From the NCBI GenBank assembly GCA_937871295.1, contig CALMRE010000219.1:174-64173 (forward strand): 64,000 bases of DNA. Direction: 5' to 3'. The notes under the pieces were generated by a model that was given only the letters and a program-made list of their open reading frames with translations, made no database searches and had not been told where the DNA came from. How positions within the stretch are numbered: the first letter of the stretch is position 1; the number at the start of each line of letters is the position of its first letter. This document shows positions 12,491-57,035 of the stretch, piece after piece. This DNA is from an uncultured bacterium. Lineage in GTDB: Bacteria; UBP6; UBA1177; JAKLFG01. Both the position numbers and the translations under genes were made by a program.

Positions 12491-12554
12491 TTTCTTGATT
12501 TTGTGCGACGGGGCACTAGACTCACGCCGGGTTATGTAGTGAATGGAGGACCTC

Positions 12555-14087
12555 ATGTCTCTGAAACGGCTCCTCATCGACGGCGAAACGCTGACCATCC
12601 GCGATGTGTACGAAGTCGCCTGCTGTGACCGCCCCGTCGGCATCGCCCCCGCGGCGGTGAAAAAGGTCGAGAAATGCCGCCGCTTCGTCGACAAACTCCT
12701 GACGCAGGATAAACCGGTCTACGGCATCAACACTGGCTTTGGCATACTGAGCGAAGTGGCGATCCCCAAAGACCACCTCGACGACCTCCAGATAAACCTC
12801 ATCCGCAGCCACGCCATCGGCATCGGCGACCCGTTCGACCGCGCGACCGTCCGCGCCATCATGCTGCTGCGCGCCAACGTGCTGGCCAAAGGCTTCTCCG
12901 GCGTGCGCCTCTCGACGCTTGAACATCTGGTCGAGTTCATCAACGCCGACATCATCCCCTACATCCCGCAGAAAGGATCGGTCGGCGCGTCGGGCGACCT
13001 CGCCCCGCTGTCGCACCTTGCCCTTGCCCTGTGCGGCGAAGGCTACTGCCTCGGTGACGGTATGTTGCCGGTCGATACGGCCGGAGTGCTGAAAAAGAAA
13101 AAAGTGACGTCGATAACGCTCAAGGCGAAGGAGGGGCTCGCTCTCATCAACGGAACGCAGGTGATGACCGCCGTGGGGGCGCTCACCATCCACCGGCTGA
13201 ACGATCTGGTGAAACTCGCCGACATAGCGCTGGCGCTCACCGTCGACGCGATGCTCGGTACCGACCGCGCCTTCGACGACAAGGTGAACCGCGTTCGCGC
13301 CCATCCCGGCCAGTTCGAGGTATCGCGCAATGTCCGCAAACTCCTTGCTGGTTCATCCATCCGCGAATCGCACCGCTGCTGCACCAAAGTGCAGGATTCC
13401 TACAGCCTCCGCTGCGCCCCGCAGGTCCACGGCGCCATCCGCGACGCGCTGAACCACGCTGCCGAGGTGATCACGACCGAGATAAATTCTTCGACCGACA
13501 ACCCGCTCATCTTCCCCGACGAGCAGGAGACGATATCGGCGGGCAACTTCCACGGTGAGCCGGTGGCGCTGGTGATGGACTACCTCACCGCGGCGGTGAG
13601 CGAACTGGGAAACATCGCCGAGCGGCGTATCGAACAGCTCGTCAACCCGGTCTTTTCACAGGCGCCCGCTTTCCTTATAAAGAACAAAGGGCTCAATTCG
13701 GGCTTCATGATCGTGCAGGTGGCGGCGGCGAGCTTAGTCTCCGAATCGAAGTCGCTCTCATTCCCCGCGTCGGTCGACTCCATCCCCACCTCCGCCGGCA
13801 AAGAGGACCATGTCAGCATGGGGACCATATCGGCGCGGAAGTGCGCGCAGGTGACCGAGAACACCGCCTGCGTCATCGCGCTGGAACTGCTTACCGGCTG
13901 TCAGGCGCTCGAATTCCGCAAGCCGCTCAAGACCGGTATCGCCCTGCGGGCGGTCCATAAGCGGATACGGAGCGAGGTCCCGTTCATGGACCACGACTAC
14001 TTCCTCCATCCCGCCTTCGCGAAGGTCCGGGCGATGGAAACGGAACTCGTCCATATCGCCGAGAAGGCGGTGTGCGGTCTCGAATAA
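12555..14087 (+). CDS. Histidine/aromatic amino acid ammonia-lyase family (HAL/PAL), canonical MIO triad
   Basis: GSVGASGDLAPLSHL contains the Ala-Ser-Gly MIO-forming triad. Full-length at about 510 aa. SD GGAGGA upstream of MSLKR. Confidence 0.8.
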   Translation: MSLKRLLIDGETLTIRDVYEVACCDRPVGIAPAAVKKVEKCRRFVDKLLTQDKPVYGINTGFGILSEVAIPKDHLDDLQINLIRSHAIGIGDPFDRATVRAIMLLRANVLAKGFSGVRLSTLEHLVEFINADIIPYIPQKGSVGASGDLAPLSHLALALCGEGYCLGDGMLPVDTAGVLKKKKVTSITLKAKEGLALINGTQVMTAVGALTIHRLNDLVKLADIALALTVDAMLGTDRAFDDKVNRVRAHPGQFEVSRNVRKLLAGSSIRESHRCCTKVQDSYSLRCAPQVHGAIRDALNHAAEVITTEINSSTDNPLIFPDEQETISAGNFHGEPVALVMDYLTAAVSELGNIAERRIEQLVNPVFSQAPAFLIKNKGLNSGFMIVQVAAASLVSESKSLSFPASVDSIPTSAGKEDHVSMGTISARKCAQVTENTACVIALELLTGCQALEFRKPLKTGIALRAVHKRIRSEVPFMDHDYFLHPAFAKVRAMETELVHIAEKAVCGLE

Positions 14088-18806: not shown

Positions 18807-18862
18807 GGATTCCTCCGTCGGTCAGTACGGCGGAGAGATATCAGAACGATCAACTCAAGTCA

Positions 18863-18895
18863 AGAAATGTCTTATGTCGAGGACTGACCCCTCTG
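18863..18895. repeat. Right terminal inverted repeat of the RAYT-like element
   Basis: 33 bp. It contains an in-frame ATG (18874) for the downstream znuA-like ORF. Confidence 0.6.
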
Positions 18896-18957
18896 CATTG
18901 ACTATCCTTCTTTCCTCTGCTATTGTGGCGGGCGTATGTGGTAATGGTGAGGACAAC

Positions 18958-19881: not shown

Positions 19882-20606
19882 CCATCGTCTCTTTTGACAG
19901 GGTCTCCTTCGCCTATGCGGCGTGGCCGGTACTCGAAGAGGTCTCCTTCGATATCTATGAGCGCGAGTTCTTCGCCATCATCGGGCCGAACGGCGGCGGC
20001 AAGACGACCATCCTGAAACTCATGCTCGGCCTCCTCAAGCCCCGGCAGGGGCGGGTGACGGTCCTCGGGGCGCCCGCCGGGAAGAACGGCGGCCGGATCA
20101 GCTATGTGCCGCAGTCGGCGCGGATGGAGCTCGATTTCCCCATCACGGTCGAGGAGACGGTGATGCTCGGGCGGCTCGGGCCGCGTTCGTTCACCCCGTT
20201 CTTTTCCGAAAAGGACCGGGCCGCGGCGCGCGAGTCGATGGCGGCGGTCGATATCCTGCCGCTCAAGGACCGGCTCTTCGACGAACTGTCGGGCGGCCAG
20301 AAACAGCGGACCCTCATCGCCCGGTCGCTGGTGTCGGCGCCCGAGCTGCTGCTCCTCGACGAGCCGGTGTCGAGCGTCGACAGTACCGTGGAGCAGGATA
20401 TCTATGCGCTTCTCAAGGAACTGAATAAAAAGATGGCCATCGTCATGGTGTCGCACGATCTCGGCTTCGTGTCGTCGTATGTCAGACGGATCGCCTGCGT
20501 CAACCGGCTGGTGTCGGTAAGCGATGCGGCCGAGGTGACGCAGTGCGGGATAGACGAGAAGTATCACAGTCACATGCACCGTGTCGATCATCACTGCGGG
20601 TTGTAA
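19878..20606 (+). CDS. znuC: Metal ABC transporter ATP-binding protein
   Basis: Walker A GPNGGGKTT, signature LSGGQKQR, Walker B LLLLDEP. Confidence 0.85.
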   Translation: MTIVSFDRVSFAYAAWPVLEEVSFDIYEREFFAIIGPNGGGKTTILKLMLGLLKPRQGRVTVLGAPAGKNGGRISYVPQSARMELDFPITVEETVMLGRLGPRSFTPFFSEKDRAAARESMAAVDILPLKDRLFDELSGGQKQRTLIARSLVSAPELLLLDEPVSSVDSTVEQDIYALLKELNKKMAIVMVSHDLGFVSSYVRRIACVNRLVSVSDAAEVTQCGIDEKYHSHMHRVDHHCGL

Positions 20607-20608
20607 CG

Positions 20609-21433
20609 ATGGGCGGATTTGTCACGGCGCTACAACAGTATCCCTTCCTGCAGAACGCCCTTATCGCGGGACTGCTGGCGGCGGTCGCCTGCGGTCTTGC
20701 CGGGACCTTCGTGGTGCTCAAAAAGATATCGTTCGTCACCGGCGGCATATCGCACGCGGTGCTGGGCGGTGTCGGGGTCGCCGTGTTCCTCGGCTATTCC
20801 CCCTTCGCCGGAGCGCTGGTCTGCGCACTGCTGTTCACGGTGGTGCTGGGGCTCGTCAACAAGCGGGCGCGTCAGCATGAGGATACTCTTATCGGCGCGC
20901 TCTGGGCGGTCGGGATGTCGGTCGGCATCCTGTTCCTGTACCTCACCCCGGGGCATCAGGCCGATCTGATGGGGTATCTGTTCGGGAGCATCCTGATGGT
21001 GCCGCGCGAGTCGCTCTACCGGCTGGCGGTGCTCGACGCGGTGGTGCTGGTCACTGTATTCGTCCTTTTCCGGCAGTTCATCGCCATATCGTTCGACGAG
21101 GAACATGCCCGGGTGCGTGGCCTGCCGCGGACGGCGCTCTACATCATGCTGCTCGGGGTGGTGGCGCTGACGGTGGTGGTGCTGATGCAGGCGGTCGGCC
21201 TCATACTCGTCATCGCGCTTCTCACCCTTCCCGCCGCCACCGCGGCGCTTTTTAGCCGCTCTCCGGCCGCCATCGTCGGCTGGGCGACCCTCATCGGCGC
21301 GGTATCGACCTTCGCCGGCATTTTCGGGTCATTCTCCCTCGATATCCCGGCCGGTCCGGCGATGGTGCTCACCGCCGGCGCGTTCTATCTCGCCGGTCTG
21401 GTTCTGCGCGCCGTAAGCGGGAGGAGCGCATGA
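20609..21433 (+). CDS. znuB: Metal ABC transporter permease
   Basis: Eight TM helices; ABC-3 family. Start chosen at MGGFVTALQQ. Confidence 0.85.
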   Translation: MGGFVTALQQYPFLQNALIAGLLAAVACGLAGTFVVLKKISFVTGGISHAVLGGVGVAVFLGYSPFAGALVCALLFTVVLGLVNKRARQHEDTLIGALWAVGMSVGILFLYLTPGHQADLMGYLFGSILMVPRESLYRLAVLDAVVLVTVFVLFRQFIAISFDEEHARVRGLPRTALYIMLLGVVALTVVVLMQAVGLILVIALLTLPAATAALFSRSPAAIVGWATLIGAVSTFAGIFGSFSLDIPAGPAMVLTAGAFYLAGLVLRAVSGRSA

Positions 21434-37299: not shown

Positions 37300-38000
37300 G
37301 ATACTGTTCCTCGCTGCTTCTGATGCTGTCCCTCTTGACCGCCGCCTGCGATGAGCCGTCGCCGCAGTGGCGCGACGATCAGGCGGTGGTTGACGAAACT
37401 CAGACCGATCAGTCGGATCAGACCGATCAGGCCGATCAGTCGGACCAGATCGATCAGTCGGATGCCGACGAGCCGGTCCCCGATGAGCCGGTGGTCGATT
37501 GCACCGCCGCCAGCCCGACGGCGGCCGAAAAGAACGCACTTCAGACGATATTCCCCGCCGGAGAGACCTTCTGCGCCGACAAGACCGCGAGCGGCGTTTC
37601 CTACTTTATCGCAGTACGGGACGGACAAACGGTCGGCTACGCCTTTCCCGGCACCAACTACGGTTTCGACGGGCAGATCGTGGCGCTCACCGGCATGACC
37701 GTCGGGGCGAAAAGCATCGCGGTCGCCATCGTGTCACAGCGGGAGTCGTGGTGGTACCGGATGGGGGACTGGTTCTTCGATCAGTTCAGGGATATCGACA
37801 TCACGCAGATAACGCTCGATCCGAAGTACAACAAGAACTGCTATCCCTGTTCCGAGATGTACGACGCCTTCAAACCCTTCACCGTCGACGCCGTCTCGGG
37901 GGCGACCTACACCTCCAACGCCGTCACCAAAGATGTGTGGGATGCCCTCTATCTGTACGATGAGCTCTTCGATCCGCCTACTGCGGACACTGCGCCGTAG
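37296..38000 (+). CDS. FMN-binding-domain lipoprotein with an acidic (DQ[ST]D)n linker
   Basis: Lipobox LLTAAC. The (DQSDQTDQADQSDQIDQSD) repeat is present. The C-terminal FMN_bind domain carries the flavinylation motif DAVSGATYTSNAV. The start overlaps the aat stop (ATGA). Confidence 0.6.
   Translation: MRYCSSLLLMLSLLTAACDEPSPQWRDDQAVVDETQTDQSDQTDQADQSDQIDQSDADEPVPDEPVVDCTAASPTAAEKNALQTIFPAGETFCADKTASGVSYFIAVRDGQTVGYAFPGTNYGFDGQIVALTGMTVGAKSIAVAIVSQRESWWYRMGDWFFDQFRDIDITQITLDPKYNKNCYPCSEMYDAFKPFTVDAVSGATYTSNAVTKDVWDALYLYDELFDPPTADTAP
37396..37455 (+). repeat. Hexanucleotide microsatellite (GATCAGNCG-type, about 10 units) rich in GATC sites
   Basis: gatcagtcggatcagaccgatcaggccgatcagtcggaccagatcgatcagtcggat; it encodes the DQ[ST]D repeats. 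Confidence 0.6.
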
Positions 38001-39618
38001 CGTCGTTCCCTTGAATGGTCGCGCTGCCGGTCCAACCGTACCCGTCTGTCAGCGTGTCGCGCAGTTCTTCGGCCGCACACTGCGGCAGAAGCGGATTCTC
38101 CTCAACATAAAGATCCCCGCCGATCCAGACCAGCGCGGGGAAAGAGAATTCGTTCAGGGAGTCGTTATAGGAAACGGCCATGTCCCCTCCGACCTGCTCC
38201 AGTAGCAAGAGCGCCGCGGTATCGGAGAGGAGCGGATTGTTGAGAAGCACGAAACGATCCGATACCGAACGGAGGTGATCGAGCCCGCTCAGATCGGTCA
38301 GGAGCGGGTTGTTCTGTATCTCGGCCGGTCCGTAGATCCATGAAAGGAAGGCGAGTCCCGCGAGGTTGTCGAGCAAAGCGTTGTTGATGAGCGAAAGCCC
38401 GCCGACGCTCCGGAGGGAGGGGAAGCCCGAAAGATCCTCCAGTTTCGCGTTCCGGTGCAGGACCAGAAAGCCTTCGATCGTCTGAAGTTGCGGCGGTCCG
38501 TCGGGGTGAACGAGTTCGTCGCATTGCCGGATGATCAGATCGCCGCCGATACGGATCAACCGCTCCAGTCCGGCGAACGACTTGATCCCGCACTGTTCGA
38601 CCGATACGGTGCCGTTCGCCTGCTCAAGCGCGCCGAGACCCTTGAAGGAGACGAGGGCGGGATCGTCATACACCGACAGCTCGCCGACCGCCATCAGACC
38701 CTCCAGTCCGCTGAAAGAACGCAGGGAGCGGTTCCCGCGCACCGTCAATCGGGACAGGTAGATGAACGGGAGGGGCGCGGCACTGATCTGAATGAGGCCG
38801 TCATTGTCCTGCAGATACAGTTCGCCGAGCGCCTGAAGCGCGGACAGGCCGCCCAGTGTCGAAAGCAGGTCGTTGTCGAAGAGGAAAAAAGCGCCGGATA
38901 CGCTCTGCAGAACAGGAAGCCCGAGTCCCCCCAGCAGGCGGTTGCGTTCCAGCCAGACCGAGCCGGCGATCTGCAACGAGACCAGATCGAGTTTGGAGAG
39001 ACGGGCATTGTCCTTTACCAGCAATGTTCCGTCGATGGTGTGCAGGGAAAGAAGATCGCCCAGCGTGTACAGTTTCGCATTACTCTCGACCGAAAGTCCT
39101 CCGCCGATGGTCTGCAGCGAGCGCAGACCGGAAAGATCGTTCAGCAGAACATTCCGCTTTATGATGAGAGAACCCTCTATCCGTTCGATGTTGTGCAACT
39201 GCTCGACCGCGGGCAGAAGGGTCCTTTCGATGACCAGATCGCCCGCTATCGTATCGCAGGCGGCGAAATGGGGAAGCGACTGTTCGTCGACGACCGCCGT
39301 TCCATCACAAAGCCCGATCCAGTCGGCATCGGTCCGTTCTTCCGCTTCATCCGCGGCTCCCGATGGGTCGGTCGTGTCGGTCGGTTCGTCCTGATCGGGC
39401 AGGGGCGGCTTATCGATATCGGCCGTTCCCGTATCGGTATCGGTGGTCGCAATGCAGAAGCCGTCGCGGCAGACAAGTCCGTCCTCGCAGAAAACAAGGC
39501 CGCCGCAGGCTTCGCCGGGGCCAACGCGGTCAAAAGGGTCGTCGTAGATCGCGCGCTCCTTTTCACAGGCAAAGACGATAGACGCGGTCATAAGGATCGT
39601 CAGCAGACGGTACATCAA
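37978..39618 (-). CDS. Secreted leucine-rich repeat / receptor-L-domain-like beta-helix protein
   Basis: Signal peptide; Cys-rich N-terminus; a D/T-rich linker; about 14 repeats of about 24 aa of the form L..L..I.G.L.I..N..L..L.GL..L. Confidence 0.6.
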   Translation of the reverse strand: MMYRLLTILMTASIVFACEKERAIYDDPFDRVGPGEACGGLVFCEDGLVCRDGFCIATTDTDTGTADIDKPPLPDQDEPTDTTDPSGAADEAEERTDADWIGLCDGTAVVDEQSLPHFAACDTIAGDLVIERTLLPAVEQLHNIERIEGSLIIKRNVLLNDLSGLRSLQTIGGGLSVESNAKLYTLGDLLSLHTIDGTLLVKDNARLSKLDLVSLQIAGSVWLERNRLLGGLGLPVLQSVSGAFFLFDNDLLSTLGGLSALQALGELYLQDNDGLIQISAAPLPFIYLSRLTVRGNRSLRSFSGLEGLMAVGELSVYDDPALVSFKGLGALEQANGTVSVEQCGIKSFAGLERLIRIGGDLIIRQCDELVHPDGPPQLQTIEGFLVLHRNAKLEDLSGFPSLRSVGGLSLINNALLDNLAGLAFLSWIYGPAEIQNNPLLTDLSGLDHLRSVSDRFVLLNNPLLSDTAALLLLEQVGGDMAVSYNDSLNEFSFPALVWIGGDLYVEENPLLPQCAAEELRDTLTDGYGWTGSATIQGNDATAQCPQ

Positions 39619-39689: not shown

Positions 39690-40367
39690 TCACTCGCCGC
39701 CGGGACACTGTTTGGCGAGTTCCTGTATCCGGCCGCGCATCTCCTCCGAGGTGATGGTGTAATGGTCGGTGATGTACTTCAGGCGCATCTTGACGGCGGG
39801 ACAGCGATCTTTTTTGGCGTAGAACTCGGCGACCTTCAGTTCGCGCGAAAGAAGCATCGTTTCGGCCTCGGCCAGTTTTCCCTCCGTCTCGGCAACGAAC
39901 TTTCCCTGCGGGTAGAGACGCAGATATTCGCGGTACTGCGCGGCCGCTTTTTCGACGCTGTCGGATAGGTCCTTCTCTTCGGGCGGCGGCAGGAGCCAGA
40001 AATCGCTCGGCCGCTGTTCGAAGGTGCAGTTGCCGGTCTGGAACTGCGCCCAGTCGGACAGTTCGTGGTTCGGCCGCATCTGCAGAAAGAGTTTGTATAT
40101 CTCGAAGGCGGCGGCGAACTCTTCGCGCTTGAAGTGGGAATCGGCCAGCCCGATGCGGGCGAACGGTTCCCATTTGCTGTAACTGTAGTCGGCGATGACC
40201 TTCAGGAAATTCTCCTGCGCATCCTCGAAGTCGCCTTGTTCCAGATAGGCGGCGCCGGTGCGATAGAGCTTCTCGGCGTCCGATTCGGCGCCGGTGATGA
40301 CCGGTGTCGACGAGCAGGCTGCCGCGAAGAGGGCCGCGCCGATAAGGCTGAAAAATGCGTTCTTCAC
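39690..40367 (-). CDS. bamD: Outer membrane protein assembly factor BamD-like TPR lipoprotein
   Basis: Lipobox FAAACSS. TPR repeats with the BamD-type YLEQGDFEDAQENF, and a C-terminal MRLKYITDHY helix. Confidence 0.65.
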   Translation of the reverse strand: MKNAFFSLIGAALFAAACSSTPVITGAESDAEKLYRTGAAYLEQGDFEDAQENFLKVIADYSYSKWEPFARIGLADSHFKREEFAAAFEIYKLFLQMRPNHELSDWAQFQTGNCTFEQRPSDFWLLPPPEEKDLSDSVEKAAAQYREYLRLYPQGKFVAETEGKLAEAETMLLSRELKVAEFYAKKDRCPAVKMRLKYITDHYTITSEEMRGRIQELAKQCPGGE

Positions 40368-41068
40368 TCTATCCTCCGGGTTAAATGTCGTATCTGCGGG
40401 GCGTGTATCCAGCCCTCGATGTTGTCCTGAAAACTCTTCGCCTTAAGCCAGCCGACCGAGGCGCCGCTGATCTCGAGCACCTCGCCTTCGCGCACTTTGC
40501 CGACCGCCGTGAGCGCCGTGTCGGGACCACTCTTCAGTTCCGCGGCGGTGACGGCGACCGCATAAAGCTGGGCGCCGGTGTCGCGGTAGCGGGTAAAGAA
40601 AAGGACCGCGAACAGCACCGTCAGCATGAACAGCGGCACCAGCAGCAACCGCAGTTTCCATCCCGGCCGGAGCATATACAGCAGTAGAGCGCCGATGAGA
40701 AGATACAGGAAAACGAAGAAGAGTATCATGACCGGCGCGATGTCGCCGCTCTTTTCGGTAAGCCGTTTGGGGACCGTGACATGCAGTTCGGCCGCGAGGA
40801 GGTCGATATTGTTGCGCGCCTCCTTCAGATCGGGGGCCGCCTGCAGCGCCTGCAGATAATGGTGCAGTGCATCTCCTTTCTGTCCCTGTTTCTCCGCGAT
40901 GACGCCGAGATTGTAGTGCAGGAGCGGGTCGAACGGCCTCTGTGCCAGCTCTTTTTCCACCAGCGCCTGTGCGGCGCGGTGATCCTTTTTCGCGTACAGT
41001 TCAAAAAGATCGTCGGCGCAAAGCGGGAGCGCCGCGAGCAGTAGCAATATGCCGAGAAGCCGTTTCAT
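40364..41068 (-). CDS. batE: BatE-like protein (TPR + TM + SH3b)
   Basis: Signal peptide, TPR repeats, two TM helices and a C-terminal SH3-like domain. It is the last gene of the bat operon. Confidence 0.6.
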   Translation of the reverse strand: MKRLLGILLLLAALPLCADDLFELYAKKDHRAAQALVEKELAQRPFDPLLHYNLGVIAEKQGQKGDALHHYLQALQAAPDLKEARNNIDLLAAELHVTVPKRLTEKSGDIAPVMILFFVFLYLLIGALLLYMLRPGWKLRLLLVPLFMLTVLFAVLFFTRYRDTGAQLYAVAVTAAELKSGPDTALTAVGKVREGEVLEISGASVGWLKAKSFQDNIEGWIHAPQIRHLTRRIE

Positions 41069-42803
41069 GCGAGCCTCCGCGCACCGCGCAGGAGTTCGAG
41101 GGCCTGCTGTTTGAGCGTTGCCAGATCGCTGCCCGCGCCGCCCGAATAAACGCTGTTCTGCAGTTTACGCGCCAGTTCTATGAACGGCGCGGTCCGCCCG
41201 GCGAACCGTTTTTCCACCTCGCGGGTCCGTTCCCCCTTGAGGGCGATCCCGGAAACCGCCTTGACCGCGTCGTAGTAGGTGTTGAGGAGTGTCGACGGAT
41301 CGGCCGCCGCCTCGATGCGCCGTTCCCATTCGCGCAGCAGGAAGGCCTCTTTTTCGCGCCGGTAGCGAAGGATGCCGCGGACAAAGAAGATAAGCGCGCC
41401 TAGACAGAGCAGCACGAGAGGCAGGGCGAGCGCAGCGCGGAACAGCGGCCGTTCGGTCAGGGGGGTCAGATCGTACACCGCCAATCCCGCCGGCAGTTCG
41501 CGGAGCAGTTCGTAACTGACCGTCCGTTTGGCCTCTTCGGCCGCCGCCGGATCGGAGGCCAGTTCGCCCACGGTGATATTGACCGGGCGGGTGGCGAGTG
41601 TCGACCACCCTCTCTGGCGATCGTAGGTGTCGATCACCGCCGCCGGCAGTTCAAAAGAGCCGGCGCGGAGACCCTTGACCATGAACTTGAAGGTTTTGGT
41701 GCCGCAGAGTCGCGCGCCGTCCCAGCGGGTGTCGACCTTGACATCGGGCGGAAATATCTTGACGCCGTCCTCCGACTTGAAGTTCAGGTCGAGTTGGCGC
41801 AGAGCGCCGCAGCCGGTGATGGTGTAGGTGACGGTATCGAGCGGTTTGCGCTTGTCGAGGTTGAGCAGGGTGTGGCTTTGGGTCACCGCAAGATCGGCGA
41901 CGATGCCGCCGGGGTGCCGGTCGGCGTCGGGAAGGGGGGAGAGATCGAACGACAGGTGGGGCGAAGAGAGCGCTTTTCTGCGCATGTCGAAGAAACTGCC
42001 GGTCACCACATCGAGTATCATCTGGGTCGCCCCTAGGCGGGTCGTTTTGGCGTCGGGGACGAGCAGGTAGCGTTTCAGCAGCGCGTAGTCGTAGACCGCC
42101 CCTTCAAGATTGACGCGGCTGAAGTTGAGTTTGCGCGGGGCGTCTATCTCCTCGCTCCAGCCGTTCTCGAACGATGGTATCTGGGAGAACGAAAGGTCCG
42201 ATATCTGGTTCTTCAGCGTGAACAGGTAGTAACTCACGACCAGCGGTTCGCCGCGGTAGCGCGGTTCATCGGGCCAGACCACGGCGCGGATGAAGTAGCG
42301 CCCCGTCTGTTTCTCCCACGCCGAAAGCGGCGCGAACAGCGAGTTGCCGGCGTCGGTCGGAGCGGGAATGCCGCCGGGCTGCTGCTGCATGCCGGGGGCG
42401 GCGGGCTGTTGCGGCGCGGAGCCGCCGGTGACGGTGACGCGTACCTGATTCGACCGGACCTCGCGCCCCTTTTCGAGTACGAGCGTCGCCGGGCCGAGGG
42501 TGAACTGTCCCGCCTTCTGTGCGCGGAGGATATAGGTGATGGTCCGCTCCTTGCGCGAGGTCATCTTGCCGTTGATGATGCTGACCGAACTCGAGGTCGA
42601 TTCGCCCCGGTTCTCGATGGTGAACCCGGGAAGATCGGGTTCTTTCACCTCCACCACATCATCCTTTTCATCGTCGACGATGGTAAGGGTGAGGGTCAGT
42701 TCGTCACCGGTCGCCAGACTTTGCCGGTCGATCTCCAACTGGACGGAGGTGGCGGAGGCAGTACCCCATAAGAATAGTAAGGATATGAAAAATAAGCCGG
42801 TTC

Positions 42804-42807
<4 letters not shown>
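41065..42807 (-). CDS. batD: BatD-like oxygen tolerance protein
   Basis: About 580 aa; signal peptide; a beta-rich ectodomain; a single TM near the C-terminus plus a cytoplasmic helical tail, the classic BatD topology. Confidence 0.7.
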
Positions 42808-43549
<742 letters not shown>

Positions 43550-43553
<4 letters not shown>

Positions 43554-44527
43554 ATCTTTTCCTCCTTCCGGCCGACCGGGACGACGAGAAAGAGCGCGAA
43601 GAAAAGTATCCCGAGCCCGAGCGGCAGGGCGAACTGTTCGCGGTAGAGTTGTACCCGTTTTTCCTCCAGTTTCGTCCGGTTGCGGAACGATTTGACGAAG
43701 GAGGAGAGCGTTTCTCCTTTCTGTATCTCCAGCGCACCGAGGCTGTCGCGGCACTTGTCGAAGAAGGGCTGATTGAGTTTCGAGACGACCGTTTCGCCGC
43801 GCGCATCCTTGAGGTAGCTGTCGCCCAGCGATATCGGCGCCCCTTCGGCGGTGCCGAGCGGGAGGATGGCGAGACTCACCTTTGCGTCGGCTATCTTCTG
43901 CCGCGTCGCTTCGAGATCGAGCGACGGGTCCTCGCCGTCGGATACGACCACCAGCAGTTTATCGGCGTTCTCCGCGCCGCTTTTCAGCGTTTCGAGCGCC
44001 AGTTCCACCGCAGCGCCGAGCGCCGTTCCCTGTTTTTCTATCATCCCGGGCCGCAGATCGGCCGCCACCGCGAGCGCCGTGTTGTAGTCGGCGGTGAGCG
44101 GGAGTTGCAGGAACGCCGATCCGGCGAAGGGAACCACCGCGACGCGGTCGCCGCCCAGTTCGGTGATGGCGTCTATGAGGAGCCGTTTTCCCTTTTCAAA
44201 GCGCGGTCCCTCCTCATCCTCGGCGAGCATCGACAGCGACACGTCGAACACGACGGCGACATCGATCCCCTCGTTCGAAAGGTTCACCTCCGCTTCGCCC
44301 ATCTGCGGACGGACGGCGGCGAGGTTGAGAAAGATGAGCGCCATCACGAGAAATATCCGGCGCAGCCACAGCGCCCGCTCCGACAAGTTGGTCGCCTCGT
44401 CGCGGCGGGTCGGGCTGAAAAGCGCCGCGAACCGGAGACGCCGCCGTTTGGCGACGGTGAAGTAGACGAGAAGCGCCGGGAACCAGACGAAGAAGAGGAG
44501 GAAATAGAGCGGCGCGCCGAACTTCAT
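43550..44527 (-). CDS. batB: BatB-like vWA-domain protein
   Basis: Two N-terminal TM helices; vWA MIDAS motif DVSLSM; C-terminal TM. Confidence 0.8.
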
Positions 44528-45513
44528 CGTTCCACCTCCGGGTAGAGCGGGAAGATGAGGGCGAAAAGTCGCGCAAGCAGTATCAGCAACAGTGCGGCCG
44601 CGATGAAGTAGGGGGCGAATTCGTCGTACAGTTTATACTTTTGCGCCGGTACGGGACTTTTTTCCAGTTTGTCTATCTCGGCGAAGACGCGGTGCAGTTC
44701 GTCGGTCGATATCGAGGTGTAGTCCCTGCCGCCGGTCGTATCGGCGATCCGTTTGAGCAGATCGGGATTGACCTTCATCGTCACCGTCTGATAGGCGTCG
44801 CGGCCGAAGAGGTCCTTTCCGGCCGGGAAGGGGACCGGTTTGTTGGTGCCGATGAGGATGGTGTATATCTTGATGCCCAGTTTCTTCGCTATTTCGGCGG
44901 TCGCTTCGGGACTCACATTGCCGCTGTTGTTGTCGCCGTCGGTCAGCAGTATCACCAGCCGCGATTTGGCTTTCGAATCCTCCAGCCGCGACAGGGCGAG
45001 TCCGAGCCCGTTGCCGATGGCGGTGCCGTCGTCGATGACGCCGGTGGTGAGGCGGTTGAGCAGGTTCGTGAACATCGTGTAATCGGTCGTGAGCGGCACC
45101 TGCAGGAAACTCTCCTTGGCAAAGAAGACGAGCCCCAGCCGGTCGCTGCGCCGTTCGCGGACGAACTGCTCGATCACCCCTTTGGCCGCCGCGATACGAT
45201 TCTTTGGCTGGAAGTCGAGCGCCTCCATCGAACCCGACACATCGAGCGCGATGACGATATCCTTCCCTTCGACCGGCGGGGTGATGACCCGGTCGAGGCT
45301 GACCGGCCGCGCGAAAGCGACCACCAGCAGGATAAAAGCGAGCACATCAAAAAAGCGGCAGATGCGCCAACGGCCGTCGGCGGCGCGCCGCATTCCGGCG
45401 AAATCGGTGAAGTGGAGTATCCCGCCGCCGCCCTGCCGCCGCGAACGGAAGAGAAGCCACAAGAGCGGCAGCAACAGAAGCGTCAGCAAATATGTCGGGC
45501 GTACCAGTTCCAT
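44524..45513 (-). CDS. batA: BatA-like vWA-domain protein
   Basis: N-terminal TM helices; vWA MIDAS motif DVSGSM; C-terminal TM. It overlaps batB. Confidence 0.8.
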   Translation of the reverse strand: MELVRPTYLLTLLLLPLLWLLFRSRRQGGGGILHFTDFAGMRRAADGRWRICRFFDVLAFILLVVAFARPVSLDRVITPPVEGKDIVIALDVSGSMEALDFQPKNRIAAAKGVIEQFVRERRSDRLGLVFFAKESFLQVPLTTDYTMFTNLLNRLTTGVIDDGTAIGNGLGLALSRLEDSKAKSRLVILLTDGDNNSGNVSPEATAEIAKKLGIKIYTILIGTNKPVPFPAGKDLFGRDAYQTVTMKVNPDLLKRIADTTGGRDYTSISTDELHRVFAEIDKLEKSPVPAQKYKLYDEFAPYFIAAALLLILLARLFALIFPLYPEVER

Positions 45514-45576
45514 ACCGTTATCAGAGATCCTTCACAGCGTGGGTAATAACATGAGGGCGGTGTCCTTTATTCCGGC

Positions 45577-47100
45577 TCAGCCGAGGCTCCCGACCGCCGC
45601 TTCGACCGCGTCGAGTATCGCGCCGGTGCGGACCAGTTCCTGCATCGCGGTGTGGTCGGGGTAGAGCGGCCGGTCGATCTCGAGGAATTCGACCTTCTCG
45701 CGGATCGCCTTGTGGGCCGCCGCGACACCCTTTCCGGTGGTGAAACCGCGGATGTCGAGCGCCTGCGCCGCCGCCATGAATTCGATGCCGATGACGCCGT
45801 TGGCATTGTCGAGTATCTGGAGATTCTTGAGGGCGGTGTTCATTCCCATCGAAACGAAATCCTCCTGATCGGCCGCCGCCGGGATCGACTGGGTCGATGC
45901 GGGGGAGCAGAGGATACGCTGTTCGACGATGAGGGTATCGGCGGTGTACTGCGACAGCATCAGCCCCGAGAACATGCCGGGGTTCTTCGTGAGGAACGGC
46001 GGCAGACCGACCGACAGCGCCGGGTTATTGAGCCGGTTCATTCGGCGCTCCGAAAGGACGCTCACCATCGTGATCGCCTGACCGACCATCTCCATCGGCA
46101 GAGACACCGGCGTCCCCTGGAAGTTGGCGCCCGAGAGCGTCAGTTTCTCCTCGGGGATGAAGATCGGATTGTCGCCCACGCCGTTCAGTTCGGTCTCGAC
46201 CTGCGAGCGGGCCCAGCGGATGGCGTCGTGCGCCGCGCCGATGACCTGCGGGGTGGAGCGCATCGAATAGGCGTCCTGCACCTTCGTCTTCACCTTGCCG
46301 GTGAGGAGGTCGGAGCCGGCGACACATTTCCGTATCGCGGCGGCCGAGCGGACGGCGCCCGCAAAGCCGCGCAGTTCGTGGAGTTTGGTGTGGTACGGCT
46401 TCATGTTGGCGAGCAGTGCCTCGAGCGACATCGACGCGGCGATCTCGGCCTGCTTGAGCCAGCGGTCGGCGTCGTAGAGCGTCAGCGCGCTGATGGAGGT
46501 GAGGAGGTTCGAGCCGTTTATCGCGGCGAGTCCGTCACGCGCCTTGAGGCCGGGGACCGGGATCCCCGCCTTTTCGAAGGCGGTCTTGGCGGGAAGCAGT
46601 TCACCTTTATAATAGGCCTGTCCTTCGCCGAGGAGGGTGAGCGCTATCTGCGACATCGGGGCGAGGTCGCCGCAGGCGCCGACCGACCCTTTCTTGCAGA
46701 CGAACGGGGTGACGCCTTTGTTGAGCATCGCGATGAAGGTCTGCGGTATCTCGGGGCGGCAACCGGAGTTGCCGTGGGCGTGGACGTTGATGCGGGCGGA
46801 CATCGCGGCGCGGACATGCTCGATGGGGGCGGGGTCGCCGATGCCGGCCGAGTGGTTGTAGACGAGCCACCGCTGGAACTGTTCTATCTGGTCGTCGGCG
46901 AGCACCACTTCGGAGAATTCGCCGATGCCGGTGTTGACGCCGTACATGATCTCGCGCTTCGCGATCTTCTCTTCGACCATCGCGCGGCAGAGTTTGATCC
47001 GTTCGAGCGCTTTGGGGCACAGTTCGACCGGTTCGCCGTTACGGGCGATGGCGACCAGTTGTTCGATGGTCAGATGGCTTCCGTCAAGCATGATGGCCAT
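45577..47100 (-). CDS. HAL/PAL-family aromatic amino acid lyase/aminomutase paralog with an Ala-Cys-Gly triad
   Basis: GSVGACGDLAPMSQ carries ACG where ASG normally forms the MIO cofactor. The rest is full-length HAL-like (YGVNTG, NGSN, SMG regions). It ends 63 nt upstream of batA on the same strand. Confidence 0.7.
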   Translation of the reverse strand: MAIMLDGSHLTIEQLVAIARNGEPVELCPKALERIKLCRAMVEEKIAKREIMYGVNTGIGEFSEVVLADDQIEQFQRWLVYNHSAGIGDPAPIEHVRAAMSARINVHAHGNSGCRPEIPQTFIAMLNKGVTPFVCKKGSVGACGDLAPMSQIALTLLGEGQAYYKGELLPAKTAFEKAGIPVPGLKARDGLAAINGSNLLTSISALTLYDADRWLKQAEIAASMSLEALLANMKPYHTKLHELRGFAGAVRSAAAIRKCVAGSDLLTGKVKTKVQDAYSMRSTPQVIGAAHDAIRWARSQVETELNGVGDNPIFIPEEKLTLSGANFQGTPVSLPMEMVGQAITMVSVLSERRMNRLNNPALSVGLPPFLTKNPGMFSGLMLSQYTADTLIVEQRILCSPASTQSIPAAADQEDFVSMGMNTALKNLQILDNANGVIGIEFMAAAQALDIRGFTTGKGVAAAHKAIREKVEFLEIDRPLYPDHTAMQELVRTGAILDAVEAAVGSLG

Positions 47101-47209
47101 GGAGAACTCCTTAAAAAGCGGTTATTCACTACCGACCGGGGGCGATTATATTAGTAAGGAAAGGAGAGGCAAGGAAAATGGATGAAAACCGATGATGCCG
47201 CCGAAAAAG

Positions 47210-47776
47210 TTACTGACACTTCTCTGGGGTCTGCGCCGCTAATGAGTCGCCGCTGATACCGGCATTGGGCAGTTGCGCTTTAATATCGGAAAATTGTTGT
47301 TCGTCGGTGATACAGTTCCCGTTTACCGAAAGTGCCGTTATTTTCTTGCAGGAATATAGCGGACTAAGATCCGTTAAGTAGTTGTCCATAAGGTATAGCG
47401 CGTTCAACTCTGTCAGTCCCGACAACGGTTCGAGGTCTTTTATCTTATTGTTGTTAAGTTTAAGGTTGGTGAGTTTCGTCAGCGTGCGGAGTGGTTCGAG
47501 CGATTCGATCTGGTTGTCGCTCATGCCGACCCAATCAACATTAGGCATGTTTCCTATCCCTCTGATATCTCTGATCGTTCCCGCGCCACAACCTATCATC
47601 TTGACCTTGCTGTACTTGTCCGGATCGTTAGGGTCTATAAGATCGTTATTGTAATAGTCTTGAAGTGTTTCTTCGACGCAGGCTTTGAACGCCGGATCGG
47701 GGAACATCTCGCCGTTGCCGCCGTCATCGCACCCAACCGCGCCGATGAACACAACCGCCAGCAGAAAGTTCCTCAT
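47210..47776 (-). CDS. Internalin-like leucine-rich-repeat lipoprotein (low-GC gene)
   Basis: Lipobox AVGCDDGG; LRR_4-type repeats LxxLxxLxLxxNxIxDLxPL. Local GC is about 47% against a background of about 65%. Confidence 0.65.
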   Translation of the reverse strand: MRNFLLAVVFIGAVGCDDGGNGEMFPDPAFKACVEETLQDYYNNDLIDPNDPDKYSKVKMIGCGAGTIRDIRGIGNMPNVDWVGMSDNQIESLEPLRTLTKLTNLKLNNNKIKDLEPLSGLTELNALYLMDNYLTDLSPLYSCKKITALSVNGNCITDEQQFSDIKAQLPNAGISGDSLAAQTPEKCQ

Positions 47777-47789
47777 GGTAGCCGTGGCC

Positions 47790-48032
47790 TTACGCCGCGA
47801 CATAGGACCGACCGACAGCCTTGAGCCCGACCGGCTTTTTCTGGAACAGCATCTTGCGGAACGCCTCGAACCGCTTCACCTGCGCCGGCGTGTAGAGCCG
47901 TTCACCGCATTTCTCGCAGACCTCGGCGACCACCTTGAGGACGGCGGTGTCGTTGCCGCCCTTCACGATCTTTTCAACCTCTTTCTTCACCACGGCGCCG
48001 CCGCAGGTCGGACATTTTTTGAATGGAAGCAT
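47790..48032 (-). CDS. YgiT-type zinc-finger protein (MqsA-N-like), putative antitoxin
   Basis: MLPFKKCPTCGG...VCEKCGE gives the CxxC...CxxC zinc ribbon of the zf-YgiT family, about 80 aa. It starts 2 nt after the DUF4258 gene. The long track ORF at 47790..48398 was rejected as a fusion artefact. Confidence 0.6.
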   Translation of the reverse strand: MLPFKKCPTCGGAVVKKEVEKIVKGGNDTAVLKVVAEVCEKCGERLYTPAQVKRFEAFRKMLFQKKPVGLKAVGRSYVAA

Positions 48033-53588: not shown

Positions 53589-54818
53589 TTATGGTTCGTG
53601 TATCCAGAGACGGAGCGCCGCGGGGGCGCCGTCGAAGGGTATCGTTGTTATCGTGCCGGTCGCGGTGTCGAGTGCGTTGAGGCGGCTGCGCGGAGAGCCA
53701 TCCACGAATATCTGATCGAAGAAATAGACTCGTCCGGTGAAGGGGCTCTGGTCTATCGGTATCGCGGCGAAGGCGTTAATGTCGCTCACGATACGCCGCA
53801 CCGTGCCGTCGCGTTCGAGTACCTGCAGGTGCCCCTGCCAGTCGCCGTCCATCGCGGTGAAGTAGATGCGGCCGTCGGCAAGCACCGCCAGATCGCCCAT
53901 CTTCACATCGAGCGGCGAATGCTCGTCGGTCGTTTCGTGCAGGATGACGGAGACAGTGCCGCTGAAAAGATCGACCCGGACAATGCCGCCGTCGCGTGCC
54001 TGATAGGACCCGGAGCACGAGACGAAAAGCTGGTCGGGCGAAAGGAGCGGGTTGACCGCCAGCTTCGAGGTGGGATCGGCAAGCGGCAGGTCGATGGGGG
54101 AAAGCGGTGTCCCCTCGGCGGTATGACGGGCAAGCCGTCCGCCGCGCGAAAGCCAGTCGGGACCGAGCAGTTGGAGCGCCGTCACCGTCCGTCCGCCCGT
54201 TCGCAAAAGCCCCGCGGGGGCCGGATCGGTGCCGTCGGGGGCGAAGGCGGCGAGCGGTATCTCGCCCGCCGATTTCCCGGAGCCGTCGAACAGAAGCAGG
54301 CGGTCGTACTGGTTCGCCGAAACGATGTAGCGCGTCCCGTCCCAGAGGGCATCGTAGAAATTGGCGTAGCGGTCGACCGGCGAGGCGATGGTGGTGTAAC
54401 GCGGATCGCCGTCGCGCGGTTCGTAGACCCAGACGGTGTCGGCGCCGTCGCGGCCGACGACCATGAGCCGGTCGGCGGCGGTCGCGAGCGTCAGGTCGGT
54501 CCCCTCGGGGCCTCCCAGCGGCGTCGGGAAGGTCAGTTCACGCAGGTCGTCCAGCCGTTCCCCCGGCGCGAGGAGGATATGGCCGGAGCGCGGGGCGTCG
54601 TAGCCGCCGGTCGTCGCGATGACCAGATCGGCGGCGACACAGGAACCGAGATAGGGATGGGTTCCGGCGGGGCAGACGGTATCGTCGTCGGGAACCGTGC
54701 TGTCGGTCAAGGCGGTATAGTCGGTCGTCGCGGCCATATCGATGTCGGCGGGCAGTTCGGTAAGGTCCGGAGCGCAAGCGATCGGCAGAAAGGCCATGAG
54801 GAACAGTAGCCGTTTCAT
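53589..54818 (-). CDS. Beta-propeller-like surface lipoprotein immediately downstream of btuB (BtuG-like by position)
   Basis: Lipobox LPIACAPD; repeated beta-strand/DG motifs. SD GGAGGGGG upstream of the ATG. Its start overlaps the TBDR stop. The track ORF extension to 55280 was rejected. Confidence 0.5.
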   Translation of the reverse strand: MKRLLFLMAFLPIACAPDLTELPADIDMAATTDYTALTDSTVPDDDTVCPAGTHPYLGSCVAADLVIATTGGYDAPRSGHILLAPGERLDDLRELTFPTPLGGPEGTDLTLATAADRLMVVGRDGADTVWVYEPRDGDPRYTTIASPVDRYANFYDALWDGTRYIVSANQYDRLLLFDGSGKSAGEIPLAAFAPDGTDPAPAGLLRTGGRTVTALQLLGPDWLSRGGRLARHTAEGTPLSPIDLPLADPTSKLAVNPLLSPDQLFVSCSGSYQARDGGIVRVDLFSGTVSVILHETTDEHSPLDVKMGDLAVLADGRIYFTAMDGDWQGHLQVLERDGTVRRIVSDINAFAAIPIDQSPFTGRVYFFDQIFVDGSPRSRLNALDTATGTITTIPFDGAPAALRLWIHEP

Positions 54819-56860
54819 ACGCCCCCTCCGATGTCGAGGGCAAGGCCGAGATAGAGCGATACCCCGGCGGTGCCGTAGCCTTTCACCAGTTCGTACCGGT
54901 CGTCGAAGAGATTCTCGATGCGGCCGAAGATACGGCAGAGCGGCGCGGCGCGCACCGATACGGCGAGCGACCCGATGACGGCGGTCGGGAGCGTCACGGT
55001 GACCGGTTCGTACGGATAGCGGTACTCGATATCGCGGCGCGGGCCGATGACCGTCACCCCCAAGTTCGCGTTGAAGATCGGGTCGGGATTCCAGTCTGTC
55101 CAGAGGTTGGCGAGGTGGGCGGGACGCCGCAGGACCGGCCGGGTGTCGCGCCAGTCGCGGCCGTCGTAGGTGACCACGGCGAAGGCGTCGGTGGCGGTGT
55201 AGGTGTAGTTGGCGGTGATCGTGAGGGTCCGGTGGGGCCGCGCCGAAAGGGCCGTCTCGATGCCCCACGCCGTCAGCCACCCGATGTTCTGATAGCGTCC
55301 GCAGAGCATCCCGTCACAGCCGTAGGAGAACTCTATCGCGCTGCGTGTCTCCTGATAAAAGCCGTTCACTTCGATGAGAAGCTGGCGCTCCCACAGCCGT
55401 TGTTCGATACCGCCGTCGAGGGCATTGGTCTCTTCGGGACGGAGGAATTCCGAGCCGTACTTGCTGTAGAGCTGGAAGAGACTCGGCGGCTTGAAGGCGC
55501 TCCCGACGCTCGCCCGCAGAGTCGTGTCGCTCGGGGCGATGAGGTAGGCCGCCTCCACACTGTAGGTGCCGCGCGGCAGCTTCTTCAGATATTCGCTTGC
55601 GAGCAGTACCGGCGAGCCGGTCGTGTCGAGGGTCGTGTGATGGAGACGGTACAGGAACAGGTCGAACCGGCCGCCCGCCGTGATGGAGAGGCCGTCGAGC
55701 GGCGTCACGGTGTCCTGCAGATAAAGCCCGAGGTCAAAGGAACTTTTCCGGTCAATAGCAAGGCCGGTGACGGGCCGCGTGCGGTCGTTTTTCTGATCGG
55801 CGGCCCCCTGTCCGGCGGTGAATACCGCGCCGGTCCGGAGACGATTGTAGGGGATCGCGGTGATGTCGTTACGCCATGCCGCCTCGATGGTGTCGCCGAT
55901 AAAGAAGATGCGCGAGAACCCCCATTCGTCCTGCGGGCCGTTGGGTTGATTGCGGTCGTCGCAGGAACGGCGGGCGACGGAGAGTTCGAAGGTCTGGCCC
56001 CATGCACCGTCAAAAAGAGAACCATCTGCCGCGAAATGTCCCAGCAGGCGGTCCGAGGAGAAGATGCGGTCGGGGTCGTCGCGCCAGCGCCCCGGTCCGT
56101 TGTCGATATCGGCGTCGGCGCCGATGTAACGGAGCGCTGCCGAAAACCGCCACCGGTCGCCCGCCGCGACGCCGAACCGTCCGGCGACGGTCAGAGTCCG
56201 TGCACGGTCCTCCTCGCTGTTGCCGTCGTGTTCGGCCGCCGCCGAATAGCCGCCGGTGTCGAGATAAGAAGCGTTCATCGCGTAGTCGCCGCGTGCCGTG
56301 CCGCCGCGGAGTCCCGCCGACAGCCGCAAATGGTTAACCGCGATGTCGCCGGGGGCGAGATCGACCATGCCGCTTTCGGCGGAAAGTGAAAGACGGGCCG
56401 GACCGCCGCCCCCCCGCGAGGTGATGAGGACCGCGCCGCTCATCGCGTCGGGACCGAAGATGACCGCCTGCGGGCCGCGCAGTATCTCAATGCGCTCGAT
56501 GCCGTCGGCCATGATGTCGGACAGATCGGCGGCGTTCTCGACCGAAAAGGGGTCGTTGAGCCGCACCCCGTCGAGGAGTACCAGCGCGTGACCGCCTTTC
56601 CCTCCGCGTATGAAAAGGCTCGTCAGCCCGCCCGCACCGCCGGAGGTCGAGATGTGGATGCCGGGCGTTTCGCGCAGGAGTTCGGCGACGGTATCTTTTT
56701 GTTTCTTCTCTATCTGTTTTTCGGTGATGACGGTGGTGGCGCGGGCGGTATCATCGCCCTCCCGCTTTTCGCTCACGACGGTGCGATAGGGCTCTTCGGC
56801 GGCATGAAGGGCACAAAAGGAGATAAGGGAGAATAACAGGATCGCCGTACGCACAGGCAT
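54815..56860 (-). CDS. btuB: TonB-dependent outer-membrane receptor, BtuB-like (cobalamin riboswitch-controlled)
   Basis: Signal peptide; plug domain (TVITEKQIEKKQ, IRGG); a 22-strand barrel; a cobalamin riboswitch in the 5' leader. Start at MPVRTAILL. Confidence 0.8.
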   Translation of the reverse strand: MPVRTAILLFSLISFCALHAAEEPYRTVVSEKREGDDTARATTVITEKQIEKKQKDTVAELLRETPGIHISTSGGAGGLTSLFIRGGKGGHALVLLDGVRLNDPFSVENAADLSDIMADGIERIEILRGPQAVIFGPDAMSGAVLITSRGGGGPARLSLSAESGMVDLAPGDIAVNHLRLSAGLRGGTARGDYAMNASYLDTGGYSAAAEHDGNSEEDRARTLTVAGRFGVAAGDRWRFSAALRYIGADADIDNGPGRWRDDPDRIFSSDRLLGHFAADGSLFDGAWGQTFELSVARRSCDDRNQPNGPQDEWGFSRIFFIGDTIEAAWRNDITAIPYNRLRTGAVFTAGQGAADQKNDRTRPVTGLAIDRKSSFDLGLYLQDTVTPLDGLSITAGGRFDLFLYRLHHTTLDTTGSPVLLASEYLKKLPRGTYSVEAAYLIAPSDTTLRASVGSAFKPPSLFQLYSKYGSEFLRPEETNALDGGIEQRLWERQLLIEVNGFYQETRSAIEFSYGCDGMLCGRYQNIGWLTAWGIETALSARPHRTLTITANYTYTATDAFAVVTYDGRDWRDTRPVLRRPAHLANLWTDWNPDPIFNANLGVTVIGPRRDIEYRYPYEPVTVTLPTAVIGSLAVSVRAAPLCRIFGRIENLFDDRYELVKGYGTAGVSLYLGLALDIGGGV

Positions 56861-56894
56861 TGTCCCTCCGCGGGGTCGCACTGTTCACGATTCC

Positions 56895-57035
56895 GCTTTC
56901 GGATATTCTGGCTTGCGGTCAACCGGAGCGCCGCCCCTTCCCGCCGTACGGCAGTGGGCTATTGCGGCGTCCGTCGCGCTTACAGCTGCGGGACAGCACC
57001 GGATTCACACCGGATTTCCCCGTCTGCGGACACAG
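56895..57035 (-). promoter_or_regulatory. Cobalamin (AdoCbl) riboswitch in the btuB 5' leader, with upstream TTGACA-17-TACTAA promoter (about 57040-57072)
   Basis: The minus-strand RNA reads GGGGAAAUCCGGUGUGAAUCCGGUGCUGUCCCGCAGCUGUAAGCG...AGCCCACUGCCGUACGGCGGGAAGG. This closely parallels the E. coli btuB leader (GGGAAUCCAGUGCGAAUCUGGAGCUGACGCGCAGCGGUAAGG...CACUGCC...GGGAAG) and the B12-box consensus GCCACUG. Confidence 0.7.

Follow-up and report, generated by a model that had tools for sequence, protein, structure and literature searches.

A widespread branch of the histidine ammonia-lyase family with a natural Ala-Cys-Gly triad at the cofactor site

Ammonia-lyases of the histidine ammonia-lyase (HAL) family use a 4-methylideneimidazol-5-one (MIO) electrophile whose textbook source is an X-Ser-Gly tripeptide, and a 2026 preprint describes Ala-Ser-Gly (ASG) as needed “in all so far characterized” lyases. 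The gene considered here departs from that rule. It lies at 45577..47100 on the (-) strand of a 64,000-nucleotide stretch of DNA from an uncultured bacterium of the GTDB lineage UBP6 (contig CALMRE010000219.1; this whole stretch is referred to below as the window) and, as judged from its open reading frame (ORF), its translation and a PF00221 match, encodes a HAL-family protein of 507 aa with an ATG start. The protein carries KKGSVGACGDLAPMSQ, and alignment places its presumed MIO precursor triad, within GSVGACGDLAP, at Ala142-Cys143-Gly144 (ACG; codons GCC-TGC-GGC, 46669..46677, (-)). Is this cysteine an artefact, an alternative source of the usual cofactor, or the mark of a different enzyme? 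We found that the gene belongs to a widespread and distinct branch of the HAL family, highly conserved and yet to be characterised, in which Cys usually replaces the Ser. Because catalytic residues are conserved, Cys and Ser exchange freely and some members lie in hut operons, we consider it probable that the protein is a cytoplasmic, homotetrameric, MIO-dependent HAL isozyme of this subfamily, in which MIO would form from Ala-Cys-Gly through loss of H2S. Both a natural, presumed Cys-precursor MIO triad and the distinct, uncharacterised subfamily are new here: no mention of a natural Ala-Cys-Gly triad was found in the searchable literature on ammonia-lyases and MIO. The expected end product, i.e., MIO and HAL activity, would be conventional, which limits the surprise.

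The simplest alternative is that the cysteine is an error of sequencing, or a polymorphism among strains, in an ordinary HutH, since TGC is a single substitution away from TCC or AGC. A search of 5.8 billion clustered proteins, for which the best 120 matches were examined, speaks against both: the triad was ACG in 114/120 and ASG in 6/120, the homologues came from independent assemblies, and the triad context was nearly invariant ([CS]xKGSVGA[CS]GDLAPM). Cys was kept in all close relatives, at 98, 96, 95, 92 and 89% identity. The protein is moreover just 39% identical to the canonical HutH of the same window, a paralogue encoded at 12543..14087 (+) with an ASG triad and an NFHGEP motif that scores 658 bits against the TIGR01225 hutH model, above its cut-off. 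These homologue counts, together with the triads of the clade loci described next, rule out an error or strain polymorphism. A preliminary description of this DNA had listed the same two HAL-family paralogues, one ASG and one ACG, which the ORFs and profile scores bear out, and had recognised no natural ACG variant. The triad is not an oddity of a single gene: ACG is the majority state of a cross-phylum clade and also occurs independently in canonical HutH. The description had also allowed for the Cys being a polymorphism, and in one sense it is, at the level of the clade, where it exchanges freely with Ser, not at that of sequencing or strains.

To characterize the clade, we surveyed 54 species-level loci, with one genome per species. 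Position 143 was Cys in ~31 of them, Ser within an ASG triad in ~21, and part of a Ser-Ser-Gly (SSG) triad in 1. On a neighbour-joining tree, 15 Fitch changes between Cys and Ser were needed at this position, at least 10 of them inside the clade, and all basal branches carried Cys; Cys is probably the ancestral state. The Ser143 codons belonged to the TCN as well as the AGY family (TCC 8, AGC 8, TCA 2, TCT 2, AGT 1), which is what recurrent one-step changes starting at TGC or TGT would give. An alignment scan of all positions revealed no column that co-varied with residue 143. Two further cysteines are typical of the clade, namely Cys135 (96% of members, vs. Pro in 89% of canonical HALs) and Cys114 (87%, vs. 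Val or Ile in canonical HALs). A coupling of either to Cys143 was considered and rejected, as S135 variants retain C143 and S143 variants retain C135. Beyond the clade, ACG was found among 150 representatives of the family in two of canonical type (P0159 and P0178), where SSG (9) and Thr-Ser-Gly (1) also occurred, as well as in a Thermoleophilia canonical hutH (locus L076; 687 bits) that lies together with hutU, hutI and ftcD.

These exchanges bear on whether the cysteine matures at all. It might instead be retained, leaving a protein with no MIO, or with some other thiol-containing cofactor, that is inactive, regulatory or of different chemistry. In favour of this, the literature found describes X-Ser-Gly triads only, and the additional clade-specific C114 and C135 are without explanation. 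Yet at least 10 Ser/Cys swaps occurred in proteins otherwise 70–95% identical with no compensating change, and such free swapping makes two different cofactors hard to reconcile; the remaining MIO environment (G144, D145, N195, F329 and Y280) is invariant in the clade; and ACG stands in a canonical hutH within a full hut cluster. We regard a retained Cys143 as highly improbable. The free Cys/Ser exchange instead lends indirect support to a mature MIO in the ACG enzyme, and the natural ACG hutH of the Thermoleophilia hut cluster argues that a Cys-derived MIO is chemically feasible. The same triad at the same position is also known from an engineered protein, in that the S143C single mutant of Pseudomonas putida HAL was reportedly found by Langer, Lieber and Retey in 1994 to mature into a fully active enzyme. 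This result would imply that MIO (dehydroalanine) arises there with H2S as the leaving group, and it speaks both for such feasibility and against a retained Cys143. That mutant was made in a canonical HutH, while the Cys of the clade is natural.

The aromatic amino acid lyase profile PF00221 matched over its full length (profile 1–466 of 466, E = 3e-162, 540.9 bits), and the HAL subfamily model NF006871 was passed narrowly (534.7 bits vs. a cut-off of 524; 511–541 bits across clade members). All models for other specificities remained below their cut-offs, i.e., tyrosine aminomutase (TAM; 372 < 501), phenylalanine aminomutase (PAM; 340 < 800), FlxA tyrosine ammonia-lyase (TAL; 307 < 700) and phenylalanine ammonia-lyase (PAL; 210 < 519), and the order of NCBIfam scores, HAL > TAM > PAM > TAL > PAL, was the same as for canonical HutH. 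Solved structures ranked by sequence E-value in a similar manner (HALs ~1e-89, TAM 1e-83, AdmH 1e-66, ergothionase 1e-62, TAL 1e-57, PAL 1e-48). Together, these two rankings put the protein on the HAL side; its placement relative to PAL, TAL and the aminomutases is thus one by hidden Markov model (HMM) scores and PDB rankings. An AlphaFold2 monomer model (predicted TM-score 0.83), whose per-residue confidence (pLDDT) falls below 50 at active-site segments and which was used for fold assignment alone, gave P. putida HAL as best Foldseek match (TM-score 0.87–0.88, E = 1e-29).

At the residue level, the enzyme is close to HutH (EC 4.3.1.3; P. putida 1B8F/1GKM, Thermoplasma acidophilum 7TQR, Geobacillus kaustophilus) in catalytic and substrate residues, triad position and length, with which it shares the fold at TM-scores of 0.87–0.88. 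The numbering is identical up to ~270, so that Ala142-Cys143-Gly144 coincides with Ala142-Ser143-Gly144 of P. putida HAL. Of the residues to which roles in carboxylate binding, imidazole binding and β-proton abstraction have been given (bioRxiv 10.1101/2025.08.13.670108, PMC11432326), Y53, H83, N195, Q277, Y280, R283, N313, F329, M382 and E414 were 100% conserved in 40 clade sequences. Where PMC9002059 gives a cofactor tripeptide as characteristic, this protein has Ala-Cys-Gly instead, in register inside an intact GSVGAxGDLAP.

Under the HAL reading, the protein would fold into the HAL tetramer, after which the backbone nitrogen of Gly144 would attack the Ala142 carbonyl. Ring dehydration and elimination of the residue-143 side chain would follow, the latter as H2S from Cys where canonical enzymes lose H2O from Ser, with the same 4-methylideneimidazol-5-one electrophile as the product. 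L-histidine would then be held through its carboxylate by Arg283, Asn195 and Gln277 and through its imidazole by His83 and Glu414, while Tyr53 would take the β-proton, and ammonia and trans-urocanate would leave. The sequence itself, the conserved catalytic residues, the Cys/Ser exchange and the hut-operon settings of some members are observed; the substrate, the tetrameric state and a Cys-derived MIO are the parts of this reading that we infer. MIO enzymes with other non-ASG triads offer only a partial parallel: Thr-Ser-Gly (Pantoea PAM/AdmH), Ser-Ser-Gly and Cys-Ser-Gly are likewise natural variations of the tripeptide, but they vary its first residue, which is the carbonyl donor only, whereas the clade varies the eliminated side chain and hence the leaving group. 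In a clade where Ala-Cys-Gly is routine, the majority state, and swaps with Ser, cofactor maturation with a thiol leaving group could be studied in a natural system.

What does such an enzyme act on? The preliminary description had left substrate and reaction (lyase vs. aminomutase) open; they are now less so, since the retained histidine residues and the members found in hut operons point to the conversion of histidine to urocanate. The neighbourhoods of the 54 loci were examined, and ORFs within 6 kb of the clade gene were clustered all against all. At one locus (L052), ftcD-N, ftcD-C, hutU and then the ACG HAL form one operon, and at another (L028) the ACG HAL is directly beside hutU. The ASG members behave alike: one is directly beside hutU (L023), one has hutU, hutI and ftcD within 5 kb (L022), and two have hutI directly downstream (L041 and L046; TIGR01224, 422 bits). 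Outside these cases, no widely conserved neighbour emerged, with no cluster present at more than 7/54 loci and generic sensor kinases as the most frequent.

A number of observations nevertheless weigh against an ordinary HAL role. In the 64-kb window, tblastn with hutU, hutI and ftcD seeds gave no match, in agreement with the earlier statement that neither paralogue is next to hut genes (the canonical HutH is flanked by RNase HII and UvrD), and across the survey hut linkage was rarer for the clade (7/54 loci) than for canonical HutH (12/26; Fisher p = 0.002). The TIGR01225 hutH equivalog cut-off of 539.15 was missed by this protein (512.5 bits) as by five other clade members (499–515 bits), which explains the vague public names of the clade (“aromatic amino acid ammonia-lyase,” “HAL/PAL/TAL family”). 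Comparison of the 40 clade sequences with 121 canonical representatives further revealed a set of residues fixed in the clade at sites where the canonical enzymes are 85–97% invariant. At the “Ser/His” substrate-switch motif (PMC11432326; codons at 46852..46857, (-), by alignment), Asn82 occurred in 40/40 clade sequences where 96% of the canonical set have Ser, although His83 was invariant in both; H330Q and G327A flank Phe329, so that the canonical NFHG[EQ]P reads NFQG[ST]P, and C284S adjoins Arg283. Taken together, S82N and these flanking changes make a shifted substrate preference possible. Inspection of the selectivity residues, which the preliminary description had proposed, thus has a divided outcome: the histidine-specific residues are all kept, and the Ser of the Ser/His switch is Asn82. 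Lastly, coexistence with a canonical HutH, within this window and side by side at six other loci, is odd for pure redundancy.

These adjacent pairs were found in genomes of Delongbacteria, Bacteroidia, Melioribacteraceae and Heimdallarchaeota, at L014 (8405–11518), L016 (8426–11518), L027 (8004–11512, in the order hisS, canonical HAL, clade HAL), L048 (8133–11206), and L041 and L046 (both 8297–11518). The paired canonical enzymes have ASG or SSG triads, Ser-His and NFHG[EQ]P. Such an arrangement suggests subfunctionalised isozymes or a heteromer.

The same features can be read as those of a MIO lyase functionally diverged from HutH that acts on another imidazole amino acid with a free α-amino group, e.g., N-methylated or thiolated histidine. 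This would account for the invariant Asn in the selectivity motif, the clade-wide changes in the second shell by F329 and R283, the scores below the hutH equivalog cut-off, the frequent adjacency to canonical HutH and the mostly orphan position of the genes, and the HAL family has indeed given rise to enzymes for histidine derivatives (bioRxiv 10.1101/2025.08.13.670108). However, every histidine-contacting residue of canonical HAL is retained, members stand in operons with hutU, hutI or ftcD, which require urocanate itself, and loss of the MIO triad, which the clade keeps, marks the known derivative-specific relatives. Those relatives, ergothionase (6S7J) and the Shewanella histidine-betaine trimethylammonia-lyases, have the HAL fold, the imidazole-binding His and Glu, and the catalytic Tyr in common with the clade, yet they are ~29% identical to it, act on trimethylammonium substrates and lack the tripeptide, where the clade has an intact G-A-[CS]-G-D-L (G-A-C-G-D-L in this protein). 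On balance, we judge a lyase for another imidazole substrate to be unlikely.

An aminomutase would be a different way out, for instance a MIO-dependent histidine 2,3-aminomutase giving β-histidine. Some members of the family are indeed aminomutases, which have the fold and the cofactor of the lyases; the TAM model reached 372 bits and the SgTAM structure a TM-score of 0.88, and the very strong sequence constraint in the clade could mean a tightly closed active site. Against this stand scores far below the TAM and PAM cut-offs, hut-operon contexts that need free urocanate, and the 54 loci, at which no nonribosomal peptide synthetase or polyketide synthase cluster neighbours were seen; in addition, the switch residues are Asn-His, and the His-Leu or Phe-Leu selectivity residues of aminomutases, TAL and PAL are not present. 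An aminomutase appears exceedingly improbable, and a HAL activity remains the reading that we prefer.

Next to its motif changes, the clade stands out through its separation from other HALs and its conservation. Among 1.84 billion representatives clustered at 50% identity, its nearest neighbours had 57, 54 and 49% identity, while the bulk of HALs had ≤44%; identity to the HutH enzymes named above was 36–39%. The preliminary description had raised the prospect that the paralogue clusters tightly with ordinary HutH, which is contradicted by its 39% identity to the HutH of the window as well as by its equivalog score. Further signature positions are P135C, L149M, H151Q, K188R, E189D, Q249A and A389D, along with a 2-residue insertion at 183–184. 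In data with one genome per species, clade members at 56–78% identity to the query occurred in >15 bacterial phyla, with hosts including Zixibacteria, Aminicenantes/Acidobacteriota, Eisenbacteria, Delongbacteria, Chloroflexota, Bacteroidota, Ignavibacteria, TA06, Myxococcota, Gemmatimonadota, Clostridia and Actinomycetes, and in several archaeal groups (Thermoplasmatales, Thermoplasmata, Thalassarchaeaceae and Heimdallarchaeota). All records were metagenome-assembled genomes (MAGs), none being from a cultured organism. These members point to a coherent subfamily of at least several hundred sequences to which automatic annotation has given only vague labels. If the enzyme is simply a robust HAL, it may be of practical interest, as MIO lyases find use in both biocatalysis and enzyme therapy.

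Across the phyla of the clade, identity was 68–78%. Seven genomes, i.e., the window and the six adjacent-pair loci, carry the clade gene alongside a canonical HutH and allow the two to be compared directly: mean pairwise identity was 76% for the clade proteins and 48% for canonical HutH, and between the window and Heimdallarchaeota the values were 70 and 40%. The clade tree departs from taxonomy, with archaea among Bacteroidales and Actinomycetes among Acidobacteriota, so that horizontal transfer contributes to this pattern alongside purifying selection. The two Heimdallarchaeota loci L041 and L046 show the opposite of the distant comparisons, the clade HAL being 89% and the adjacent canonical HAL 97% identical between them (8297–11518 in both), a hint of gene replacement or of clade-gene transfer. 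For the genome studied here, a recent horizontal import was rejected, as third-position GC content (GC3) was 0.86 vs. 0.79–0.83 in neighbouring genes, with no compositional sign of import.

Strong conservation, an altered selectivity motif and frequent pairing with canonical HutH keep a further alternative alive. Specifically, the clade may be a functionally distinct MIO enzyme, whether by another imidazole substrate, another outcome or an obligate partnership with canonical HutH, in which case its cross-domain conservation would stem from a specific function in anaerobes not yet cultured, with Cys143 as the ancestral cofactor precursor, possibly favoured in anoxia. We hold this broader proposal to be doubtful.

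Finally, we considered whether the genomic setting of the gene, directly upstream of a bat (Bacteroides aerotolerance) cluster, is informative about its function. As the preliminary description had stated, and as the coordinates confirm, the ACG gene has the same orientation as the bat genes and lies 63 nt upstream of batA (gap at 45514..45576, (-)). The cluster comprises, in canonical order and all on the (-) strand, a batA-like VWA gene (44524..45513; NF047508 BatA 8e-60, Pfam VWA), a batB-like VWA gene (43550..44527; NF047506 BatB 5e-30, Pfam VWA_2), a batC-like TPR gene (42804..43553; NF047507 BatC 3e-15, TPR matches), batD (41065..42807; PF13584 BatD 2e-26) and a batE-like TPR and SH3 gene (40364..41068; TPR and SH3_3 matches). 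A YfiO/BamD-like TPR lipoprotein gene (39690..40367; PF13525 YfiO 6e-24) is the last conserved member of the unit. The bat genes overlap one another by 4 nt, including batB with batA; the batC-like gene starts with the ATG at 43553, which overlaps the stop codon of batB as ATGA, as indicated by the sequence and a 254-aa orthologue at L004.

The order HAL-batA-B-C-D-E-YfiO was kept in relatives at 96% (L004–L006) and 89% identity (L088), in which the batE-like and YfiO-like genes were likewise conserved (L004 and L088), and the HAL-batA gap spanned 59–67 nt across the lineage. Upstream genes differed: the window has one for a leucine-rich repeat (LRR) protein, L004 one for a PAS hybrid kinase and L088 one for glycogen phosphorylase. 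Even so, the region just upstream of HAL was nearly invariant among the window, L004 (96%) and L088 (89%). A consensus scan predicted there a sigma-70-like promoter (TTGCCT-16-TATAAT, 10/12 matches; 47145..47172, (-)), followed by a leader and a GGAG Shine-Dalgarno sequence. Running from the -10 box to the HAL start, the leader (CGCCCCCGGTCGGTAGTGAATAACC..., window 47101–47144, (-)) is ~40 nt long and had no Rfam match. The gap to batA was poorly conserved among relatives, no terminator-like or promoter-like site was predicted in it, and its predicted RNA fold was no better than that of shuffled sequences (z = +1.0). A regulatory RNA or terminator in the gap was thus discarded, the sole Rfam match in the window being an unrelated cobalamin riboswitch. 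HAL is the 5' member of a HAL-batABCDE-YfiO unit with its own conserved promoter, in the window lineage only. The co-transcription suggested in the preliminary description, i.e., read-through from HAL into batA, is plausible because the gap is without predicted terminator or promoter, the HAL promoter is conserved and relatives as distant as 89% identity share the gene order.

A DUF58 protein accompanies described Bat clusters. Such clusters are also linked to MoxR (PMC3557215), whereas in the window cluster a HAL gene comes first, at the 5' end, and neither a MoxR nor a DUF58 gene was found anywhere within the 64 kb. It could be argued that HAL stands in a functional partnership here, with, for example, urocanate or ammonia serving alongside the Bat proteins in aerotolerance or in a response to envelope stress, and that this explains co-transcription. 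The conserved order and gap in relatives despite three different upstream genes would fit, as would the conserved HAL promoter with no terminator ahead of batA, the missing MoxR and DUF58 partners, and a BatA_N-VWA gene two genes from the HAL pair at L048. But none of the 54 clade loci in other taxa had bat linkage, with different neighbours in Zixibacteria and other phyla; Bat proteins, whose biochemical role is not known, are VWA and TPR proteins of the membrane or periplasm without a known small-molecule link, and independent promoters are possible for bat genes (PMC3557215). A working partnership with Bat seems quite improbable to us. Being lineage-specific, the bat association says little on enzyme function; HAL-bat linkage is a lineage-specific operon arrangement that implies no functional coupling and is apparently without general meaning. 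The L048 locus, in a Melioribacteraceae MAG, has a BatA_N and VWA protein, HflX, canonical HAL and clade HAL in a row (4743–11206) and provides the only Bat-related gene near a clade HAL outside the window lineage, a proximity that is probably coincidence.

Several other features of the window and its relatives were recorded. Within the bat unit, the C-terminal half of the batC-like protein is long, of low complexity and rich in Q, K and E, and the YfiO/BamD-like lipoprotein gene is translationally coupled to the 3' end of the batA-E cluster; downstream of the unit, the 96%-identical relative L004 encodes a Kelch-repeat protein of >2600 aa. The cobalamin riboswitch (RF00174, 83 bits; 56901–57021, (-)) is directly upstream of a TonB-dependent receptor gene (54815–56881, (-)), the two probably constituting a B12-regulated uptake system. 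An IS200-like Y1 transposase gene (17850–18806, (-)) adjoins a znuA/ABC zinc-uptake operon (18805–21433). Eukaryote-like repeat proteins are dispersed through the window, at 15793–17349 (+), 37978–39618 (-) and 47210–47803 (-), with ankyrin repeats, Receptor L domain/LRR and LRR among the repeat types.

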